A stretch of 64,000 nucleotides of DNA from NCBI GenBank assembly GCA_040385525.1, contig JAZKHE010000004.1, forward strand, positions 256,787-320,786, in the 5' to 3' direction. A program made the translations under genes and the position numbers. The notes under the pieces are model-generated. The model saw nothing but the letters and a program-made list of their open reading frames with translations. It ran no database searches and was not told the DNA's origin. Positions 7,807-19,129 of the stretch are shown piece by piece. The stretch is from Bacteroidota bacterium. Its GTDB lineage: Bacteria; Bacteroidota; Bacteroidia; UBA4408. Numbering within the stretch: the stretch's first letter is position 1; each line of letters begins with the position of its first letter.

Positions 7807-9081
7807 ATGATAAAAGACACTACTATTTTTAATTTAATTAACGAAGAAAAACATCGTCAAGTAAATGGTTTAGAGTTAATCGCTTCCGAAAATTTTGTAA
7901 GCGATCAAGTTATGCAAGCAATGGGTTCTGTTTTAACAAACAAATATGCTGAGGGTTTACCAAACAAAAGATATTACGGTGGTTGCGAAGTTGTTGATAA
8001 AGTAGAACAATTAGCAATAGATAGAGTTAAACAATTATTTGGTGCAGCGTGGGCAAATGTTCAACCTCACTCGGGTGCGCAAGCAAATGCAGCTGTAATG
8101 CTTGCCGTTTTAAAACCAGGCGATACAATTTTAGGATTTGATTTATCACATGGTGGTCACTTAACACATGGATCTCCTGTTAATTTTTCAGGTAAATTAT
8201 ACAGAGCTACTTTTTATGGTGTAGAAAAAGAAACGGGTAGAATTGATTACAATAAAGTAGAAGAAACTGCACAAAAAGAAAAGCCAAAATTATTAATTTG
8301 CGGCGCATCATCTTATTCTAGAGATTGGGATTACGAACGTTTAAGAAAAATTGCAGATAGTGTTGGTGCTTTATTAATGGCAGATGTATCACATCCAGCA
8401 GGCTTAATAGCAAAAGGTTTATTAAACAATCCAATGCCACATTGCCACATTGTTACAACAACAACGCACAAAACATTACGCGGACCAAGAGGTGGTTTAA
8501 TTATGATGGGAAAAGATTTTCCAAATCCATTTGGAATAACAACTCCTAAAGGAGAAGTTAGAATGATGTCTTCTTTATTAGATTCAGGCGTGTTTCCTGG
8601 TACACAAGGCGGACCATTAGAACATGTAATTGCAGCAAAAGCTGTTGCATTTGGCGAAGCATTAGAAGATTCTTTTAAAGATTACGGCGTTCAGGTAATG
8701 AAAAATGCAAAAGTAATGGCACAAGCATTTGTTGATAAAGGGTACGGAGTAATTTCAGGAGGAACAGAAAACCACTGTATGCTTATTGATTTGCGTTCTA
8801 AAAATATTTCGGGTAAAGAAGCTGAGAATTTATTAGTAAAAGCAGATATAACAGTAAACAAAAATATGGTTCCTTTTGATGATAAATCTCCAATGGTTAC
8901 ATCAGGTATTAGATTAGGAACAGCTGCTATTACAACAAGAGGTATTAAAGAAGATAAAATTAATTACATAGTTGAATTAATTGACGAAGTAATTATGAAT
9001 AGAGAAAATGCAACTATAGTAGAGTCTGTTAAAAACAAAGTAAATGCATTAATGAAAGATTTGCCTTTATTTGGTTGGTAG
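7807..9081 (+). CDS. glyA: Serine hydroxymethyltransferase
   Basis: 424 aa. Canonical SHMT sequence throughout, for example [10 protein letters not shown] and the PLP-lysine region [14 protein letters not shown]. Confidence 0.95.
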
Positions 9082-9092
9082 AAGTTAATGGT

Positions 9093-10964
9093 ATGCTAAA
9101 CAGGCTTCTTCAAAATAAAGTATCTTCAAAAATATTAGGCTTCTTCAGAATTTTATTCTTCTTAAACTTCTTTTTTGAGGTATTAAGTTTATTCAATTTT
9201 AGACATCTTATATTTGATAAGGTATCCTATTTTGAGCCCTCTGAGATATCATTTACATATGTTTTTTTTGTTTGGTTTTTTGTTATTGGTTTTATTATCA
9301 TTGGACTAAAACCAAGAATTGCTTTTTTACTAAATTTTTTAATCAGTCTATTTGTTATTGGATCGATAAAAAGCTATGAATATCATATGTTTTACGCATA
9401 TATGAGCGTAAATTTTTTATCCCTATTTATTCCACTTACAAAATCTTATTCTATTGATAACTTATTTAAAAAATTAAACTACTCAACAATTGAAAAAGAA
9501 TATAGTAATGATGAATTAGTGCCCGAATTCTATTATTTTATTTATGTTTTTGCAGGTATAGGTCTATTTTATTTAGATTCTACTTTTTACAAGTTATCTT
9601 CTGAAATGTGGCTTAACGGACTTGGCATGTGGCTGCCATCTTCAATACCTTTAGCAGTTAAAACCTATAGTTTATTTATATTGAATAACGAATATCTATC
9701 AAAATTTTTGGGGTATTTTACTATGTTATTTGAATTAGTTTTTATTTTCTTGTTTTGGAAAAAAAGATTTAAAATCCCTTTCTTTTTAATTGGAGTTATT
9801 TTTCATATTGGAATTTTTATACTTTGGCCAATTCCCTATTTTGCAATAGGTGTTATTATTATTTACACTTTATTATTGCAAGCTGACCTATTTGAAAAAA
9901 TATCATTAAAAAGTAAAACTCAAAAGCTCACAATTATTTATAATAATAAACATCCATTAAGTGTACGAAAAAAAATAATAATTCAGCATTTTGATTTATT
10001 TAATAAAATAAAATTCACTACAATCGAAGATGCAGATAAATCATTAAACAAAATTGACATTAGTAAAATTAATGAACACGATTTAACATTTGGTTATTAC
10101 TCAATAAAAAATGGAATTATTATAAAAGGAATTGATACAATTATTGCTTTGTTATTTTCGTTAGTATTTTTTAGTCCAATTGCTTTAGTTTTACAAATCC
10201 CAGGCATATACCACCTTACAAAATATTTATTTAATAAATATTTAAAAGATTATTCAGATAATACTAATGATATTACTAGTTATTCAATTGGTTTCTCTCC
10301 GAAAGAAAATCGTATTGATAACAACAAAATAAAAATATTCAAAAACCTAAGTTCTATTCAAATTGAAAAATATGGTTTTAAACTATTATTCTACTTGTTA
10401 ATTATTCTTCAGTTTAACGCTAGTTTAAAATCTCCATTGTTTAGGAATAAGCTAAGATACTATAGTTTTTACGATAAATATAATGAAGCAACTAAGTCAA
10501 TAACTAGTTTTTCCAAAGAATTTTTAGGAGTAACTAATCATTCTGTATTTATAGATTCTCATTTTAAGGGATACAATCACATTATTAAAGTAGAATACCT
10601 ATTACCAAATGGAAAAAAAACAATTTTACCAATTATTGATGAACTTGGAATGCCAGGAAAATATTTAATAGGCGGAACATGGGCAAAGTGGACATTTAGA
10701 GTTTCAATGCCTAAAATAAACCAAGACAAATTAAGCAAAGGCATTAGAGATTTTACTGCTTATTGGCTACATAATTCTTCAATTATAAACGATCCTTACG
10801 CAAATTACAAATTTATTATATCTGTAAAAAAAATTGATTCTACAAAAAAATGGGAAAAGAATTTTTTAATTAAACAATATCAAAAACCATGGATTGAAGC
10901 TGGTTTTGTTACTTGGGAAAATGGAACTTTTGTTTCTAAAATAAAAAGAATAGAATCTATTTAG
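9093..10964 (+). CDS. HTTM (vitamin-K-dependent gamma-carboxylase-like) polytopic membrane domain fused to a DCC/DUF393-like domain (CxxC degenerate) and a ~230-aa conserved C-terminal domain of unknown function
   Basis: N-terminal LGFFRILFFLNFFFEV... is the hallmark start of HTTM domains and is followed by ~8 TM helices. The middle region aligns with the DCC thiol-disulfide oxidoreductase of paralog 10985-12856. Here the CPLC motif is replaced by HPLS (IIYNNKHPLSVRKK). The C-terminal domain (FTAYWLHN...KPWIEAG) is conserved between the two paralogs. The start was chosen at the second Met by alignment with the paralog; an alternative ATG at 9075 overlaps glyA. Confidence 0.6.
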   Translation: MLNRLLQNKVSSKILGFFRILFFLNFFFEVLSLFNFRHLIFDKVSYFEPSEISFTYVFFVWFFVIGFIIIGLKPRIAFLLNFLISLFVIGSIKSYEYHMFYAYMSVNFLSLFIPLTKSYSIDNLFKKLNYSTIEKEYSNDELVPEFYYFIYVFAGIGLFYLDSTFYKLSSEMWLNGLGMWLPSSIPLAVKTYSLFILNNEYLSKFLGYFTMLFELVFIFLFWKKRFKIPFFLIGVIFHIGIFILWPIPYFAIGVIIIYTLLLQADLFEKISLKSKTQKLTIIYNNKHPLSVRKKIIIQHFDLFNKIKFTTIEDADKSLNKIDISKINEHDLTFGYYSIKNGIIIKGIDTIIALLFSLVFFSPIALVLQIPGIYHLTKYLFNKYLKDYSDNTNDITSYSIGFSPKENRIDNNKIKIFKNLSSIQIEKYGFKLLFYLLIILQFNASLKSPLFRNKLRYYSFYDKYNEATKSITSFSKEFLGVTNHSVFIDSHFKGYNHIIKVEYLLPNGKKTILPIIDELGMPGKYLIGGTWAKWTFRVSMPKINQDKLSKGIRDFTAYWLHNSSIINDPYANYKFIISVKKIDSTKKWEKNFLIKQYQKPWIEAGFVTWENGTFVSKIKRIESI

Positions 10965-10984
10965 AATTTCAAAATAGTTAAATA

Positions 10985-12856
10985 ATGATATTGAACAAAA
11001 AACTAAATACACTTTTTTTAACCAAAATTTCTTCAAAAACACTTGCTGTATTTAGAATTGCTTTTTTTTCAGTATTACTTTTCGAAGTAATTAGAATTTA
11101 TAGATTTAGAAATTTAATTTATGACAAAATCCCTTATTTTGAACCAGCAGAGATTACTTACGATTCAATTCTAATTATTTGGGGAATAGTAGTTACTTTT
11201 TTAATAATAGGTTTTAAAAATAAAACATTTAGTATAATAAATTTTGTAATTAGTCTGTTTTTAATTGGTACTTTAAGATCCTATGAGTATCATATGTTCT
11301 ACGCATACATGGGAGTAAATTTTATGTCTATTTTTATTCCAATATCTAAATCATACTCTATAGACAATTTAATTGAAAAATTAAATCATTCAACATTAAA
11401 AAAAGAACATAAACCTAACGAGCTTGTACCCGAATTTTATTATTACATAATAATTTTCATGGGAATTGGTGTTGTCTATTTTGACTCCATATTTTTTAAG
11501 TTGATTTCTCCGTTATGGCTAGCTGGTTTAGGAACATGGTATCCTGCTTCGATGCCGTTTGCAGTAAATATAGATAGTAGCATAATATTGAATAATGAAT
11601 TTTTGATAAAATACTTTGGTTATCTAACAATTGTGTTTGAAATAGTTTTCATTTTTTTATTTTGGAACAAAAAATTTAAACTACCTTTTTTTATAATAGG
11701 TTTAGGTCTACATATTGGTATATATATTTTGTTCCCTATTCCTTTATTTGCACTTGGGGTTATCGCAATATATTTGCTTTTACTCCCACCAAATTTTATT
11801 GAAAAAATAAAATTTCATTTTATAAAAAAGCAATTAATATTCTTTTATGACAACGAATGTCCGTTATGTTTGCGTACAAAAATTGTTATAGAACATTTTG
11901 ACTTATTTAAAGCCGTTAAGTTTGTCTCAATTCAAGAAAATTACAATCAATATCCTGAGTTAGAAAAAATAGGCTATGCAAATGCGTTAGACAATATTTA
12001 TTCAATTTCTAATAAAAAAGTATATGAAGGAGTTGACACTTATATAGCTGTTTTGTTTAAAATGATTTACACAGCTCCTTTTGCATTATTATTAAAAATA
12101 CCAGGCATTTATCACATAGCAAAAAAAGTTTATTCAATTGTTGCGAAAAATAGAAATACTGAACGTTGTACTGAAGATTCTTGTGAAATAGGATTTAATC
12201 CCACTCCTAATTTTTCGAACGAAAAAAATGTTAAAGTGTTTATAAATTTGACAATAGAAGATTTAAAAAAATTAGGCTTCAAAGCATTGTTCTTCACTTT
12301 AATTAGCTTTCAAATTTTAGTGAGTTTGAAATCTCCATTGATTAGTCGTTTTTTAAATAACGAAGAAGCATCAAATAGTGGACTTCAAACCTTACGTGAT
12401 TTTTCAAAATCTGCATTTGGAATCACAAATCATGAAGTTTTTATGGACTATCATTTTAATTACTACAATCATATTATCAAAATAGAATATGTAACATCAA
12501 AAAACACTAAAATTCTTTTACCTATAATTGATAATAATGGTATGCCTGCAGAATATTTAAAAGGATTTAATTGGGTTAAATGGACTTTTAGAGTTATGGG
12601 TTCTAAAGTTTATGGACATAGATTAAATGAAGGTATCAGAGACTTTACAGCATACTGGCTTCATAACAATCTTATTTCTGGCGATCCAACTAAAAATCAT
12701 ACATTCATAATATCAGTTAAAAAAATTGATAGCCCAAAGGGCTGGCAAAAAGATTTTTTAAAGCATCAACTAAACAAGCCGTGGATTGAAGCAGGAACAG
12801 CTACATGGGATAAGAAAAAATTCACATTAAATTTATTGAATATTGAATCCATCTAA
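10985..12856 (+). CDS. HTTM domain - DCC (DUF393) thiol-disulfide oxidoreductase fusion protein with conserved C-terminal domain
   Basis: 623 aa, a paralog of 9093-10964 with roughly 45-50% identity by eye. It has an HTTM N-terminus (LAVFRIAFFSVLLFEV) and an intact DCC-type redox motif FFYDNECPLCLRTKIVIEHFD. The C-terminal module is shared with the upstream paralog. Confidence 0.65.
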   Translation: MILNKKLNTLFLTKISSKTLAVFRIAFFSVLLFEVIRIYRFRNLIYDKIPYFEPAEITYDSILIIWGIVVTFLIIGFKNKTFSIINFVISLFLIGTLRSYEYHMFYAYMGVNFMSIFIPISKSYSIDNLIEKLNHSTLKKEHKPNELVPEFYYYIIIFMGIGVVYFDSIFFKLISPLWLAGLGTWYPASMPFAVNIDSSIILNNEFLIKYFGYLTIVFEIVFIFLFWNKKFKLPFFIIGLGLHIGIYILFPIPLFALGVIAIYLLLLPPNFIEKIKFHFIKKQLIFFYDNECPLCLRTKIVIEHFDLFKAVKFVSIQENYNQYPELEKIGYANALDNIYSISNKKVYEGVDTYIAVLFKMIYTAPFALLLKIPGIYHIAKKVYSIVAKNRNTERCTEDSCEIGFNPTPNFSNEKNVKVFINLTIEDLKKLGFKALFFTLISFQILVSLKSPLISRFLNNEEASNSGLQTLRDFSKSAFGITNHEVFMDYHFNYYNHIIKIEYVTSKNTKILLPIIDNNGMPAEYLKGFNWVKWTFRVMGSKVYGHRLNEGIRDFTAYWLHNNLISGDPTKNHTFIISVKKIDSPKGWQKDFLKHQLNKPWIEAGTATWDKKKFTLNLLNIESI

Positions 12857-13952
12857 TTCTACTAAAATTTCATTTAGTGGTTTAAATGAAATAAGAGCAA
12901 TTGCAGCATTCTTAGTTGTTTTTCATCATTTAGAATCATTAAAAAAAAGCGAATGGCTTACATCTATATACGATATTAAATTTCTTTTTGATTTTGTGAA
13001 AAATATTGGTCATAATGGTGTAATACTTTTTTTCACACTATCTGGCTTTCTAATAACATATCTCTTACTTTTTGAAAAGAAAAAATTTGGATTTATCGAT
13101 ATAAAATCATTTTATGTTAGGCGAATACTTAGAATTTGGCCCTTATATTTTCTTATTATTATTATAGGCTTCTTTATTTTACCACTGATTAATGAATTTA
13201 GTCTTTTTGATAATCAAAAATATTATACAAGTTTAATACGGAAAATTGATTACACTACTTTACCACTATATATTTTATTCTTATCAAACTTTGCTTTAGG
13301 CTTCTATAAACCAATTGTTGGAGCTTCACAATCTTGGTCAGTATCTGTTGAAGAACAATTTTACCTTCTTTGGCCGTGGCTAGTAAATAAAATAACTAAT
13401 ACTAAATTATTATTTTTCTTAATTCTTTCAATAGCTGTTTTAAAGCCCATAATTGAAATACTAATTACTAACAACAATCTTAAAATGATTATCCATGTTG
13501 TACAAATAGAATATATGTGCACAGGATCTCTTTTTGCAATATTACTTTATACTGATAAAATTCCAATTGTATTCACAAAACATCGCATTCTGATTTTATC
13601 AATAACAATTGTTGCAATATTATTTCAGTTTGTATTTCACATAAATAATATGCTAATATCACTTTTTTTTGGCGTTTTTATTTTAATTATTTCTCAATCT
13701 AAATTTAAAAATAAACCATTATTTTATTTTGGAAAAATATCATACGGAATTTACATGTATCATCCGTTTATTATGTTTATTTGTTTTTCATTAGCTAAAC
13801 ATCTAGCAAAAAACGAACTGCTTTTTAATGCAATATACTATAGTAGTACCCTACTATTTACAATATTAATAAGCCATTTATCGTATTATTATTTTGAGAG
13901 TAAATTCTTAAATTTCAAACACAAATTCACTAAAATAGAATCAGGTGCATAA
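12843..13952 (+). CDS. Acyltransferase family 3 (OafA/YrhL-like O-acyltransferase), integral membrane
   Basis: 369 aa with about 10 TM helices. The N-terminus LNEIRAIAAFLVVFHHLE is the acyltransferase_3 signature. Confidence 0.75.
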   Translation: MNPSNSTKISFSGLNEIRAIAAFLVVFHHLESLKKSEWLTSIYDIKFLFDFVKNIGHNGVILFFTLSGFLITYLLLFEKKKFGFIDIKSFYVRRILRIWPLYFLIIIIGFFILPLINEFSLFDNQKYYTSLIRKIDYTTLPLYILFLSNFALGFYKPIVGASQSWSVSVEEQFYLLWPWLVNKITNTKLLFFLILSIAVLKPIIEILITNNNLKMIIHVVQIEYMCTGSLFAILLYTDKIPIVFTKHRILILSITIVAILFQFVFHINNMLISLFFGVFILIISQSKFKNKPLFYFGKISYGIYMYHPFIMFICFSLAKHLAKNELLFNAIYYSSTLLFTILISHLSYYYFESKFLNFKHKFTKIESGA

Positions 13953-14802
13953 ACAAATTCTTATAGTTGGTTCAAACAGTATTTTATCTAAACAACTTGT
14001 TAGCGATTTAGAAAGTGAATACCTTATTGATATTGCTTATTCTGGAAATAATCCAGGAATAGAAAGTGATGCTAACTCAATCAATTTAATTAAATTAGAT
14101 TCAGTATTTTCGAGCAATAAAAAATACGATTTTGTTATTATAATTAGTGCTTTTATTCCAGCAAATAATGAGGGAAATAACAAAAAATTATATGAAGTTA
14201 ATGTTGAATTGGTTGAGCGATTAATTAGTAAAAACAAAGATTCAAAAATTATTTTTTGTTCAACAGTTTCTGTATTTACACCGAATAATAATGAAATTAT
14301 TTCTAAAAAAAGTACCGTAAATCCTATAAATGAATATGGAATATCTAAGCTTTGGGCAGAGAAAATAATCCAAAAAAATGCCAAATCTTATGCGATTTTG
14401 AGAATTTCATCTCTTATGGGTGTTGGAATGAAATCAAATACATTTTTACCTCTAATTATTGAAAATGCTATAAAAAACAAAAAAATCACACTATTTGGCG
14501 AAGGCAAAAGGCTTCAGAATTATATAGATGTGTCAATTTTGAGTAAAATGGTAAAAAAATGCTTGAAATATGAAAAAAACGAAGTATTTTTAGCTGTTGG
14601 CGAAAAGTCTTTTACAAATAAAGAAATTGCCGAAATGGTAAAAAGTAAAACTAATTGTGAAATCGTTTTTGAAGGTATTGACAATTCTATATCAATTGAA
14701 TACGATAACTCGTTTACAAAAAAAGAATTGAATATTATATATGAAAAAAGTATTGAGCAAAGTATTGATGAATTAATTGAATGGAAAAGAAAACAGTTTT
14801 AG
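13945..14802 (+). CDS. NAD-dependent epimerase/dehydratase (extended SDR) family protein
   Basis: 285 aa with an N-terminal Rossmann-like start ILIVGSNSILSKQL. The catalytic YxxxK is present (NEYGISKLWAEK). The gene sits inside the sugar-biosynthesis cluster. Confidence 0.55.
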   Translation: MHKQILIVGSNSILSKQLVSDLESEYLIDIAYSGNNPGIESDANSINLIKLDSVFSSNKKYDFVIIISAFIPANNEGNNKKLYEVNVELVERLISKNKDSKIIFCSTVSVFTPNNNEIISKKSTVNPINEYGISKLWAEKIIQKNAKSYAILRISSLMGVGMKSNTFLPLIIENAIKNKKITLFGEGKRLQNYIDVSILSKMVKKCLKYEKNEVFLAVGEKSFTNKEIAEMVKSKTNCEIVFEGIDNSISIEYDNSFTKKELNIIYEKSIEQSIDELIEWKRKQF

Positions 14803-15764
14803 TTACCGGTATTGGTGGTAATGTTGGACAAGGTATTATAAGAAACATTTTAGAAACAAAATTTCCAATTACAATTGTTGGATGTAATATAGCTAGTTTT
14901 AGTGCAGGAAATTATTTATGTGATGCTTTTGAATTAGTTCCATACGCTTATGACACAAATTATATTCCTAAAATAAATGAAATTGTAAAAAAATACAATG
15001 TTGATTTAATAATTCCGAGTACTGATTACGAAATTTATTATTTAGCAAAAAACAAACATTTGTTAAGTTGTGAAGTGGCTTGTTCATCTGAATCGGCAGC
15101 AAACACCTACTTAGATAAATGGTTAACTTGGCTACACCACCAACAAAATAATATTCCTTTTGCGGCTTCATGTTTGCCAAGCAATTTTACAAATCAATTT
15201 AAAGAACATATTACCAAGCCTAAAAAAGGTCGCGGTTCTAGAGGCCTTCACTTTAACCATACCGATCCAAAATCATTTACAGATGATGAGTATATGTTGC
15301 AAGAACTGGCTGTTGGAAACGAAATTACTACAGCGTTTTATGTTACTAAAAAAGGAACATTACACGGACTAATTACTATGGAACGTACATTAGAAAATGG
15401 CGCGACAAATTTTTCTAAAGTAATTACTCAATATGACGAAGAAATAACTAAAAGTATTTTGGAACCAATGATTGCTAATACAGAAATTAGAGGTTCAATT
15501 AATGTGCAGTCTATTGTAACAGAAGACAATAAAATTATTCCGTTTGAAGTAAATTGCAGAATATCGGGTACAAATTCAATCCGTACCAATTTTGGTTTTA
15601 AAGATGTAAAATATACATTACAAGAATATTTATATCATCAAGAACCCGAAAAACCAGCAGTTATAAATGGAATTGCCGTTAGAGTTTTATTAGATGTTAT
15701 TTACCCAAATGCAACATCAGTAGAATCAATTTTAACAAACAAATCCGAAAATTATATTTTTTAA
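14781..15764 (+). CDS. ATP-grasp domain protein (carboxylate-amine ligase-like)
   Basis: 327 aa. The N-terminus VLVTGIGGNVGQGIIRNI resembles the pre-ATP-grasp/CPSase-like domain. The central and C-terminal regions have the alternating beta pattern of ATP-grasp enzymes. The call rests on these motifs and on synteny only. Confidence 0.45.
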   Translation: MEKKTVLVTGIGGNVGQGIIRNILETKFPITIVGCNIASFSAGNYLCDAFELVPYAYDTNYIPKINEIVKKYNVDLIIPSTDYEIYYLAKNKHLLSCEVACSSESAANTYLDKWLTWLHHQQNNIPFAASCLPSNFTNQFKEHITKPKKGRGSRGLHFNHTDPKSFTDDEYMLQELAVGNEITTAFYVTKKGTLHGLITMERTLENGATNFSKVITQYDEEITKSILEPMIANTEIRGSINVQSIVTEDNKIIPFEVNCRISGTNSIRTNFGFKDVKYTLQEYLYHQEPEKPAVINGIAVRVLLDVIYPNATSVESILTNKSENYIF

Positions 15765-15765
15765 A

Positions 15766-16413
15766 ATGGCGGCAAAAATTAAACATTTATTATTTGACGC
15801 TGCGAATACCTTAATTCACAAGCCACAGCTATGGATTAAGATTCAAGAAGTTTTAAAAGAATCTGGTTATAATATTACTGATGAAAAATTAATGTATAAC
15901 CATAAATTAATCAGTGAATTAATTAATTTTCCAGACAGAACTAATAAAGACTTTTATCACCATTTTAATTCAGAGTTGCTATTATCATTAGGAATTAATC
16001 CCAACGATAAAATGCTTAATTTACTTTTTGAAAAATGTTCTTATTTACCGTGGGAATCATTTGCAGATTGTGGTGAGCTAAAATCAATTGATTTACCAAA
16101 ATCAATTCTATCTAATTTTAATTCAACTTTATCAAACACAATTAGCGAAAAAGTAAACTTACAATTCAATACAATTATTAATTCAGAAATAGAAGGTGTT
16201 AGAAAACCTAATATAGAATTTTATAATCTAGCAGTAAGCAAATTAAATTGTGCTGCCAACGAAATTTTATATATCGGAGATTCTTTAAATCTAGATTATT
16301 GTCCAGCCAAAGAAGTTGGAATGAATAGTTTAGTAATTGATAGAATTAATTTTTTTCCAAAACACGATTTCATCATAAATAGTTTCTCAGAAATAAAAAC
16401 TCATTTAGCTTAA
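15766..16413 (+). CDS. HAD-superfamily hydrolase (haloacid-dehalogenase-like phosphatase)
   Basis: 215 aa. Motif I-like LLFDAANTLI lies near the N-terminus and the motif IV-like IGDSLNLD near the C-terminus. Confidence 0.55.
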   Translation: MAAKIKHLLFDAANTLIHKPQLWIKIQEVLKESGYNITDEKLMYNHKLISELINFPDRTNKDFYHHFNSELLLSLGINPNDKMLNLLFEKCSYLPWESFADCGELKSIDLPKSILSNFNSTLSNTISEKVNLQFNTIINSEIEGVRKPNIEFYNLAVSKLNCAANEILYIGDSLNLDYCPAKEVGMNSLVIDRINFFPKHDFIINSFSEIKTHLA

Positions 16414-16416
16414 GCA

Positions 16417-17355
16417 ATGAACGAAACTAGAAAAAAACTCTCACTAATTGTTCCTGTTTATTTTGAAGAGGAATGTATTACTCAGTTTATTAAAGAAACC
16501 ACAGAAGTTTTAGAAACACTACCAATTGATTACGAGATTGTTTTTACAGATGATGGCAGTACCGACAATACAACATCAATAATTAAAGAACACGCCGAAA
16601 AAAACAACAGATTGAAACTAATTGAGCTATCGTATAATCACGGTAAACAAGCCGCTGTAACAGCAGGAATAACCTACTCTACTGGCGATTATTGCTTATA
16701 CATGGATCCAGATTTGCAAGATCCGCCAAAAGAAATACCTCGCTTTTTAGAAGAAATAAGTAAAGGTTACAATTTAGTTTTTGGCGTTAGAAAAGAAAAA
16801 ATTGATGGTGCTCTAAACAAGTTATTCTCTCGTTTATTTTGGTATACTCTTGAAAGATTTACAGGATTAAAACTTCCAAAAGGATTAGCTGTGATGCGAA
16901 TTTTTGATAGAAAATTTGCAAATAAATTTTTAGAATATGGCGAACAAAATAGATTTATAGAAGGTATATTTATGCACATTGGCATGAAGAAAACAACTAT
17001 AGAAATTGAACAAAGAGAGCGCTTTGCGGGTGTAAGCAAATTTAATTTTAAAAGAAAAATGAAATTGGCTTTTGATGCCATATTCGATTTTTCCGAAATA
17101 CCATTAAAACTAGCGGTTAAATTGGGTATTTATTTATTAGTAATTGGCTTTATATTTTTGTTTACTATTATTGTTTTAAAATTTACGGTAGTTGATTTTC
17201 AAGCGGGTTGGGCATCGTTAATTTGTGCCATTGTATTAGGTTTTGGTTTACAACTTTTTTTTATTGGAATAGCCGCAATTTATATTGGTCGTTCTTATAA
17301 AGAAGTTAAAAAAAGACCTTTGTTTTCTGTTAAAGAACTTACAAATTTAAATTAA
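16417..17355 (+). CDS. GT2 polyprenyl-phosphate glycosyltransferase (ArnC/GtrB/DPM1-like)
   Basis: 312 aa. The GT-A catalytic domain carries LSLIVPVYFEE, DDGSTDNT and the DxD motif MDPDLQD. Two C-terminal TM helices follow. This is the architecture of Und-P sugar transferases. Confidence 0.85.
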   Translation: MNETRKKLSLIVPVYFEEECITQFIKETTEVLETLPIDYEIVFTDDGSTDNTTSIIKEHAEKNNRLKLIELSYNHGKQAAVTAGITYSTGDYCLYMDPDLQDPPKEIPRFLEEISKGYNLVFGVRKEKIDGALNKLFSRLFWYTLERFTGLKLPKGLAVMRIFDRKFANKFLEYGEQNRFIEGIFMHIGMKKTTIEIEQRERFAGVSKFNFKRKMKLAFDAIFDFSEIPLKLAVKLGIYLLVIGFIFLFTIIVLKFTVVDFQAGWASLICAIVLGFGLQLFFIGIAAIYIGRSYKEVKKRPLFSVKELTNLN

Positions 17356-18002
17356 TGAAAACGATAGCTATTATTGGAGCAAAGGATTTAGGACAGCTTA
17401 TTGCGTATCATGCAATAACCGATAATCATTTTGATTCAGTAGTGTTTTTTGATGACTTTCTAGAAAAAGATTCACTTGTAGATGGACATAAAATAATTGG
17501 TAAAATTTCTGAGATTGAAGATTGTTTTAAACAAAAAAAATTCGACTCCATAATTATTGCAATTGGTTACAATCATTTAAATTTCAAGAAAAAACTATTT
17601 GCAGAATTAGATTCAAAAAATATTCCATTTGCAACAATAATTCATTCATCAAGCTATGTTGATAAAAGTTGCAAAATAGGCAAGGGAGTGTTTATTTTAC
17701 CTGGTTGCACATTAGATAGAAATGTAATTATAGGTAACAATACCGTGCTTAATACAGCTTGTGCTATAGCCCACGATACTGAAATTGAGAGTACTTGTTT
17801 TTTGTCTCCAAGAGTTGCTATTGCTGGTTTTACAAAAATAAATGAACTTTGTGTAATTGGTATAAATGCCACAATTATTGACAATATAACTATCTGTGCT
17901 AAAAGCCAAGTTGGTGGCGGAGCAGTTGTAACAAAATCTATAGATGAAGCTGGATTATATGTTGGTATACCAGCTAAAAAAATTAAAAAATTAGACTTAT
18001 GA
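17355..18002 (+). CDS. Sugar N-acetyltransferase, NeuD/PglD/PglB family (left-handed beta-helix hexapeptide)
   Basis: 215 aa. The N-terminus MKTIAIIGAKDLGQLIAYHA is the NeuD/PglD Rossmann-like start. The C-terminal half contains hexapeptide repeats. Confidence 0.8.
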   Translation: MKTIAIIGAKDLGQLIAYHAITDNHFDSVVFFDDFLEKDSLVDGHKIIGKISEIEDCFKQKKFDSIIIAIGYNHLNFKKKLFAELDSKNIPFATIIHSSSYVDKSCKIGKGVFILPGCTLDRNVIIGNNTVLNTACAIAHDTEIESTCFLSPRVAIAGFTKINELCVIGINATIIDNITICAKSQVGGGAVVTKSIDEAGLYVGIPAKKIKKLDL

Positions 18003-19129
18003 TAACTTTTAACAAACCCTATTTTACAGGAAAAGAAACAGATTATATTAAAGACGCAGTAGCTTCTTTAAAAATATCTGGTGATGGAATGTTCACAAAA
18101 AAATGTCATGAATTTTTTGAGAAAAAATACAACTTCAAAAAAGTATTACTAACAACTTCTTGCACTGATGCGCTCGAAATGGCAGCAATACTTATTGATA
18201 TAAAAGAAGGCGATGAAGTTATAGCTCCATCTTACACTTTCGTATCAACTGTTAATGCATTTGTATTAAGAGGCGCTAAAATAATTTTTATTGATAGCAC
18301 ACCTGAAAATCCAAATATGGATGTTTCAAAAATTGAAAGTTTAATTACTCCAAAAACAAAAGCAATCGTTCCTGTGCATTATGCAGGTATTGCATGCGAT
18401 ATGGATGCAATTATGGCAATAGCAAATAAGCACAACATATTTGTTATAGAAGATGCAGCTCAAGCAATTGATAGTTTTTATAAAGGAAAACCATTGGGTA
18501 GTATTGGGCATTTAGCAGCATTTTCTTTTCACGAAACAAAAAATATTATTTCTGGTGAAGGAGGAATGCTAGTAATTAATGATGAACTCTTTGTTAAAAG
18601 AGCAGAAATTATTCGCGAAAAAGGAACCAATCGTTCTTCGTTTTTTAGAGGAGAAGTTGATAAATATGGTTGGGTAGATATTGGTTCATCTTTTTTACCA
18701 TCAGATATTATTGCAGCATTTTTGTTTGCTCAACTTGAAAACTTAGATCAAATACAAGCAAAAAGAAAACAAATTTGGAATTTATATAAAGAGAATTTAA
18801 CGGAATTAGAAACACAAAATAAAATTCAACTTCCTCTAATACCTGATTATGCTACTAATAACGCACACATGTTTTACATTGTTTGCAAAAACTTAAATGA
18901 ACGTTCTGCTTTAATTGAACATTTGAAAGCAAATAAAATAAACGCTGTGTTTCATTATTTATCATTGCATAAGAGTCCGTTTTACGAAAAAATTCATGGC
19001 GATAAACAAATGCCTTTATCAGATATGTATACCGATTGCCTTGTTCGTTTGCCATTTTATTATGAACTAACAACAGAAGATGTAAATTTGATTTGTAAAA
19101 CTATTTTAGATTTTTATAAAAGTCGCTAA
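17999..19129 (+). CDS. DegT/DnrJ/EryC1/StrS-family PLP-dependent sugar aminotransferase (ArnB/WecE/PglE-like)
   Basis: 376 aa. MITFNKPYFTGKETDYIKDAV is the typical family start. A PLP-lysine region (SFHETKNI) is present. Confidence 0.9.
   Translation: MITFNKPYFTGKETDYIKDAVASLKISGDGMFTKKCHEFFEKKYNFKKVLLTTSCTDALEMAAILIDIKEGDEVIAPSYTFVSTVNAFVLRGAKIIFIDSTPENPNMDVSKIESLITPKTKAIVPVHYAGIACDMDAIMAIANKHNIFVIEDAAQAIDSFYKGKPLGSIGHLAAFSFHETKNIISGEGGMLVINDELFVKRAEIIREKGTNRSSFFRGEVDKYGWVDIGSSFLPSDIIAAFLFAQLENLDQIQAKRKQIWNLYKENLTELETQNKIQLPLIPDYATNNAHMFYIVCKNLNERSALIEHLKANKINAVFHYLSLHKSPFYEKIHGDKQMPLSDMYTDCLVRLPFYYELTTEDVNLICKTILDFYKSR

Follow-up and report, generated by a model that had tools for sequence, protein, structure and literature searches.

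A tandem pair of GGCX-like membrane proteins in a Bacteroidota polysaccharide operon and their possible role in glycan modification

The window, i.e., the whole 64,000-nucleotide stretch of Bacteroidota DNA that was analysed, contains two adjacent genes whose products we tentatively interpret, with a probability of roughly 45%, as menaquinol- and O2-dependent GGCX-like enzymes acting on a glycan substituent and assisted by an accessory cytoplasmic DCC domain. The proposed substrate is based on gene neighbourhood. In such a reaction, menaquinol and O2 would yield, by vitamin-K epoxidase chemistry, a strong base on the periplasmic side of the membrane. The base would deprotonate a substituent of a lipid-linked or nascent glycan, which would then be carboxylated or otherwise functionalised. 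The DCC domain, where present, would act as an accessory cytoplasmic redox module, e.g., in quinone-epoxide recycling or redox control. Copy 1, which has lost this module, may be a partner of copy 2 or the handler of a second substrate.

Copy 1 (9093..10964) and copy 2 (10985..12856) are ORFs of 623 aa on the + strand, with 50% identity over 622 residues, in agreement with the paralogous pair of about 625 aa reported in the preliminary description. Both are built of an HTTM domain, a DCC domain (degenerate in copy 1, DCC1-like with a CxxC motif in copy 2), a TM helix, and a C-terminal domain. The shared blocks quoted earlier (FTAYWLHN, KPWIEAG, and HIIK(V/I)EY) were all found in both copies. 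The NCBI name for copy 1 is 'HTTM domain-containing protein' (P0006), and an NCBI MAG protein (P0001) identical to copy 2 (100%) bears the name 'DCC1-like thiol-disulfide oxidoreductase family protein'. The distance between the glyA stop codon and the ATG of copy 1 was measured to be 11 nt, as stated before; the alternative in-frame start upstream is a TTG at 9075, and not an ATG overlapping glyA. Coupling to glyA was not supported, since the adjacency was seen in only two of 81 sources and is lineage-specific.

Each of the two proteins has nine TM helices in a GGCX-like polytopic membrane fold; the AlphaFold model of copy 2 had a pLDDT of 90.5 and a pTM of 0.90. The HTTM (GGCX-like) domain of copy 2 (10985..11794, + strand; residues 1–270) comprises eight of these helices and carries R24, D47, E101, H103, D127, D167, K172, W178, E219, H243, and F255. 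Pfam HTTM (PF05090) gave no match to copy 1 or copy 2 at E ≤ 0.1. At the level of the family, it matched 15 of the 55 members at E < 0.01, and five of ten relatives (P0020, P0035, P0043, P0073, and P0097) exceeded the gathering score of 27.7 bits across a nearly full model; the threshold was reached only in some relatives of 44–46% identity. The HTTM module proposed for the pair is thus retained on the strength of the fold and the family-level evidence, which outweigh the literal failure of the HMM search to recover it in the window proteins.

Profile-profile comparison (hhalign) aligned the family with GGCX at an E-value of 2.3e-4 over 166 columns, with a probability of 44% and a register of low confidence past residue 184. 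K172, W178, and H103 were paired with K218, W223, and H160 of GGCX, respectively. In GGCX, the general base is Lys218, against which Trp223 stacks and next to which Asp263 lies; His160 is in contact with the substrate, and Phe299 is stacked on CO2 (PMC12647623). The three family residues are unchanged in set A1 (55 members) and in every residue pattern listed for the 85 genomic members, and K172 and W178 are also kept in copy 1. By this alignment they represent the counterparts of the quinol-deprotonation site, at the predicted periplasmic membrane face. As the region of the catalytic lysine is conserved, it is reasonable to infer quinone-dependent chemistry for the pair. Greedy extension of the alignment further paired E219 with D263, H243 with H287, and F255 with F299, at low posterior confidence and with the second half alone not significant. 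The spacing of E219-H243-F255 (24 and 12 residues) is identical to that of D263-H287-F299, and these residues probably correspond. The Glu-substrate site of GGCX (Asn159/His160/Tyr395 and the 374–418 segment) was not recovered: H103 aligns with His160, but Y102 replaces Asn159, I246 stands at the position of Asn290, and the carboxylation segment (residues 374–418) was not detectable, the match of the C-terminal region to GGCX 355–520 being collinear and insignificant (hhalign E 0.61). Nor could the lumenal propeptide-binding domain of GGCX (PF22777) be detected in the C-terminal region of the family. With the carboxylation segment and the lumenal domain undetected, the chemistry could be epoxidase-only or something else.

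According to the positive-inside rule, the N-terminus, loop 4, and both sides of the DCC domain, all rich in K/R, would lie inside, and the acidic loops bearing the conserved HTTM residues outside. This rule and the topology of GGCX predict a cytoplasmic position for the DCC domain, an insertion into the loop that precedes the final TM helix, and a periplasmic one for the conserved HTTM residues and the C-terminal domain. The ninth TM helix of copy 2 (12254..12325, + strand; residues 424–447), taken from the model, contains the invariant Q443 and is followed by a periplasmic C-terminal domain of some 176 aa (12326..12853, + strand) that is confined to the family. What had been described as one conserved soluble domain of about 230 aa is therefore this helix plus a shorter domain, although the lack of a recognisable family was borne out: no Pfam family and no solved fold matched the C-terminal domain. 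It was modelled confidently only together with the HTTM domain. H483, H490, Y494, W558, and W600 are invariant in it, and H496 is nearly so, varying in a few members.

These conserved positions weigh against a non-catalytic role, in which the proteins would serve polysaccharide synthesis as a membrane scaffold, chaperone, or lipid-linked sugar carrier, with an HTTM fold and no vitamin-K chemistry. Lipase maturation factor 1 (LMF1) is described as a chaperone, and the HTTM relatives LMF1 and SdpB as maturation factors; together with the position of the window proteins below the Pfam HTTM threshold and the non-conservation of several substrate- and CO2-site residues of GGCX, this speaks for such a role. 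On the other hand, the residues that correspond to the catalytic Lys, its stacking Trp, the His, and the acidic residue of GGCX are strictly invariant down to about 33% identity. The three periplasmic C-terminal His, invariant or nearly so, form a pattern typical of an active site, and Pfam LMF1 matched neither the window proteins nor any of the 55 family members. We consider a non-catalytic role quite unlikely.

The CxxC-bearing DCC module had been assigned to both proteins, and this is correct for copy 2 only. Its DCC1-like thioredoxin-fold domain (11834..12184, + strand; residues 284–400) scored 64.8 bits (E 2e-17) against PF04134 (DUF393; gathering score 27.8 bits), is weakly similar in structure to glutaredoxin and thioredoxin, and contains the CxxC motif C292-P-L-C295 together with another conserved Cys pair, C395/C400. 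In copy 1 a remnant (9936..10235, + strand; residues 282–381) remained below the cutoff with 17.8 bits (E 0.0082). All four family cysteines are gone from it (C292H, C295S, C395I, and C400I), so that KHPLS stands for ECPLC of copy 2 and H-P-L-S for the CxxC motif. Changes at conserved columns of copy 1 amount to 21/36 in the DCC domain, 12/74 in the HTTM domain, and 1/32 in the C-terminal domain; the decay is specific to the DCC domain. All four Cys are kept in 54 of the 55 members of set A1, and they are absent from 15 of the 85 genomic members, including nine single-copy genes and copy 1; these Cys-less members retain all of the conserved HTTM and C-terminal residues that were checked. Of the 95 full-length cluster representatives, just 26 have a DCC domain with CxxC, while the other 69 lack the domain or the motif and still have the HTTM and C-terminal domains. 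As the DCC module is optional across the family, its invariant core consists of the HTTM domain, the last TM helix, and the periplasmic C-terminal domain.

With so many members devoid of Cys or DCC, a thiol-reductase fusion cannot be the core mechanism, which weakens the earlier view of an HTTM domain fused to its own thiol reductase in imitation of the VKGC and VKOR partnership. It also counts against a quinone-coupled thiol-disulfide oxidoreductase, in which an HTTM/DoxX-like domain would only bind quinone and pass electrons to and from the CxxC of the DCC domain, as DsbB or VKOR do, for redox maintenance and with no carbanion chemistry on a glycan. The valid DCC domain of copy 2 with its two Cys pairs, weak DoxD matches in 4 of the 55 members, and the recurrence of the HTTM-DCC fusion in other phyla (preprint 10.64898/2026.08.19.745780) are compatible with this explanation. 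Yet the predictions put the DCC domain in the cytoplasm and the conserved polar residues in the periplasm, and the conserved neighbours encode sugar-nucleotide enzymes and no redox proteins. We regard such an activity as less probable still than a non-catalytic role.

Downstream of the pair, all on the + strand, lies a series of further genes. An Acyltransferase_3 membrane acyltransferase gene (12843..13952; PF01757, E 1e-25; neighbour cluster 6, in 31 loci) shares its first 14 nt with the end of copy 2. It is followed by genes for an SDR-type, RmlD-like sugar nucleotide reductase/epimerase (13945..14802; PF01370 and PF04321; cluster 3, the immediate downstream gene of the family gene in 24 loci), a PylC-like or 'carbamoyl phosphate synthase-like' ATP-grasp ligase (14781..15764; PF21360 and PF02655; NF009402 at 181 bits, below cutoff; cluster 5, 37 loci), and a HAD-family hydrolase (15766..16413; PF13419 and PF00702; cluster 4). 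Next come a GT2 glycosyltransferase similar to the polyprenyl-phosphate glycosyltransferases PgfS/ArnC (16417..17355; PF00535; NF047588 at 237 bits and NF007986 at 174 bits, both below cutoff; cluster 7), a NeuD/PglB/VioB-family sugar N-acyltransferase (17355..18002; TIGR03570 at 180.8 bits, cutoff 160.8; PglD_N and Hexapep; cluster 1), and a WecE/VioA-type dTDP-4-amino-4,6-dideoxyhexose aminotransferase (17999..19129; NF008687 at 593.5 bits, cutoff 375; TIGR02379 at 548 bits, cutoff 435; cluster 2). Upstream of the pair, the window holds an exosortase sorting system as well as a protein of 1008 aa whose function is unknown. The exosortase, previously taken for XrtF, was best matched by XrtX (NF046081 at 213.7 bits, cutoff 170, vs. 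107 bits for XrtF TIGR04128), and just 3 of 81 sources have an XrtX block close to the family gene.

We surveyed 79 loci from five Bacteroidota orders (Flavobacteriales, Sphingobacteriales, Chitinophagales, Cytophagales, and Saprospirales). The VioB-like N-acyltransferase was nearby in 72 of the 79 loci, the WecE/VioA-like aminotransferase in 68, and an ATP-grasp ligase or WbqC in 73, with gene order differing among the loci. Neighbours were co-oriented with the family gene upstream in 74/79 and downstream in 74/76 cases, with median flanking gaps of 6 nt and 9.5 nt. The family gene thus resides within surface-polysaccharide operons, almost always beside genes for an N-acyl 4-amino-4,6-dideoxyhexose, whose acyl group is probably aminoacyl. 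No conserved small ORF cluster was found beside the family genes in the surveyed loci, and the short gaps leave no room for an adjoining precursor-peptide gene. Between the two substrates suggested previously, peptide or glycan, these data favour the glycan. The least probable explanation, a GGCX/MloH-like carboxylase or epoxidase acting on a protein or peptide (e.g., secreted or XrtX-sorted) with the polysaccharide locus incidental, can point to both characterised homologues modifying amino-acid residues and to the XrtX system and 1008-aa protein upstream, but it has against it the rarity of XrtX, the missing small ORFs, the undetectable propeptide-binding domain, and a VioA/VioB-like and ATP-grasp linkage that persists over five orders.

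Location of the relatives in surface-polysaccharide clusters, by genes for N-acylated amino sugars, suggests that vitamin-K-type chemistry may serve a bacterial glycan. A more specific form of the glycan-directed reading, which we find rather unlikely, is that in aerobic Bacteroidota a menaquinone/O2 GGCX-type base would carboxylate or functionalise, via a carbanion, the N-acyl or N-aminoacyl group on a 4-amino-4,6-dideoxyhexose of O-antigen or capsule, with DCC as a built-in quinone-epoxide recycler in the branch that carries it. Possible conversions would be of Asp/Glu-type or acetyl-to-malonyl-type. If true, a carbohydrate polymer would for the first time be seen to undergo vitamin-K-dependent modification.

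Among known systems, VKOR and DsbB offer a functional analogy only, namely a thiol pair possibly coupled to a naphthoquinone cycle: neither sequence nor fold similarity to them was found in the window proteins, and the VKOR cysteines face the lumen/periplasm, unlike the predicted cytoplasmic DCC domain. Copy 2 matches the full model of DCC1/YuxK (DUF393, PF04134), including the CxxC, but the domain makes up only about 19% of it, and both copy 1 and most of the family diversity have the domain in degenerate form or not at all. The NCBI name of copy 2, taken from this domain, is misleading. A giant-virus γ-carboxylase-like 'vitamin K epoxidase', fused to a desaturase and adjoining VKOR, keeps K218 and was proposed to drive a reaction other than carboxylation, with quinone recycled by a partner of its own (PMC13486548). 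The family of the window proteins resembles it in its truncated or divergent HTTM domain with K218 and an acidic D263 counterpart (Glu in the virus and probably in the family) and in the missing carboxylase motif; the viral enzyme differs in its partner (VKOR, not DCC), its proposed lipid substrate, and its eukaryotic-virus ER context. In Firmicutes, a 447-aa protein likewise joins HTTM to a DCC1-like domain, and a single-TM DUF5819 partner provides the extracytoplasmic domain in the position of the GGCX lumenal domain (preprint 10.64898/2026.08.19.745780). This partner is analogous to TM9 and the C-terminal domain of the window proteins, which hold all three parts in one chain, belong to another phylum, and are found in polysaccharide loci; Pfam DUF5819 had no match at E ≤ 10 in 24 family C-terminal segments. 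MloH, a bacterial GGCX orthologue, takes part in malonomycin biosynthesis by carboxylating an aspartyl residue (Law et al., 2018, as cited by PMC12647623 and PMC12186529). As described there, it is similarly a bacterial HTTM enzyme of a biosynthetic cluster with carbanion/carboxylation chemistry and a non-Gla-protein substrate, but its substrate is the aspartyl residue of a PKS-NRPS intermediate and its fused region is given as a structural counterpart of DUF5819. From GGCX itself the family is separated by an identity of only 13–17% (HMMER vs. PDB does not find GGCX), the undetected PF22777 domain and 374–418 motif, the non-conserved Asn159 and Asn290, and the DCC domain inserted in a cytoplasmic loop. 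Shared with GGCX are the predicted nine TM helices with the N-terminus inside, an extracytoplasmic domain after the last of them, and the counterparts of Lys218, Trp223, and His160, probably also of Asp263, His287, and Phe299, set here in a context of glycan biosynthesis and in GGCX in that of Gla proteins.

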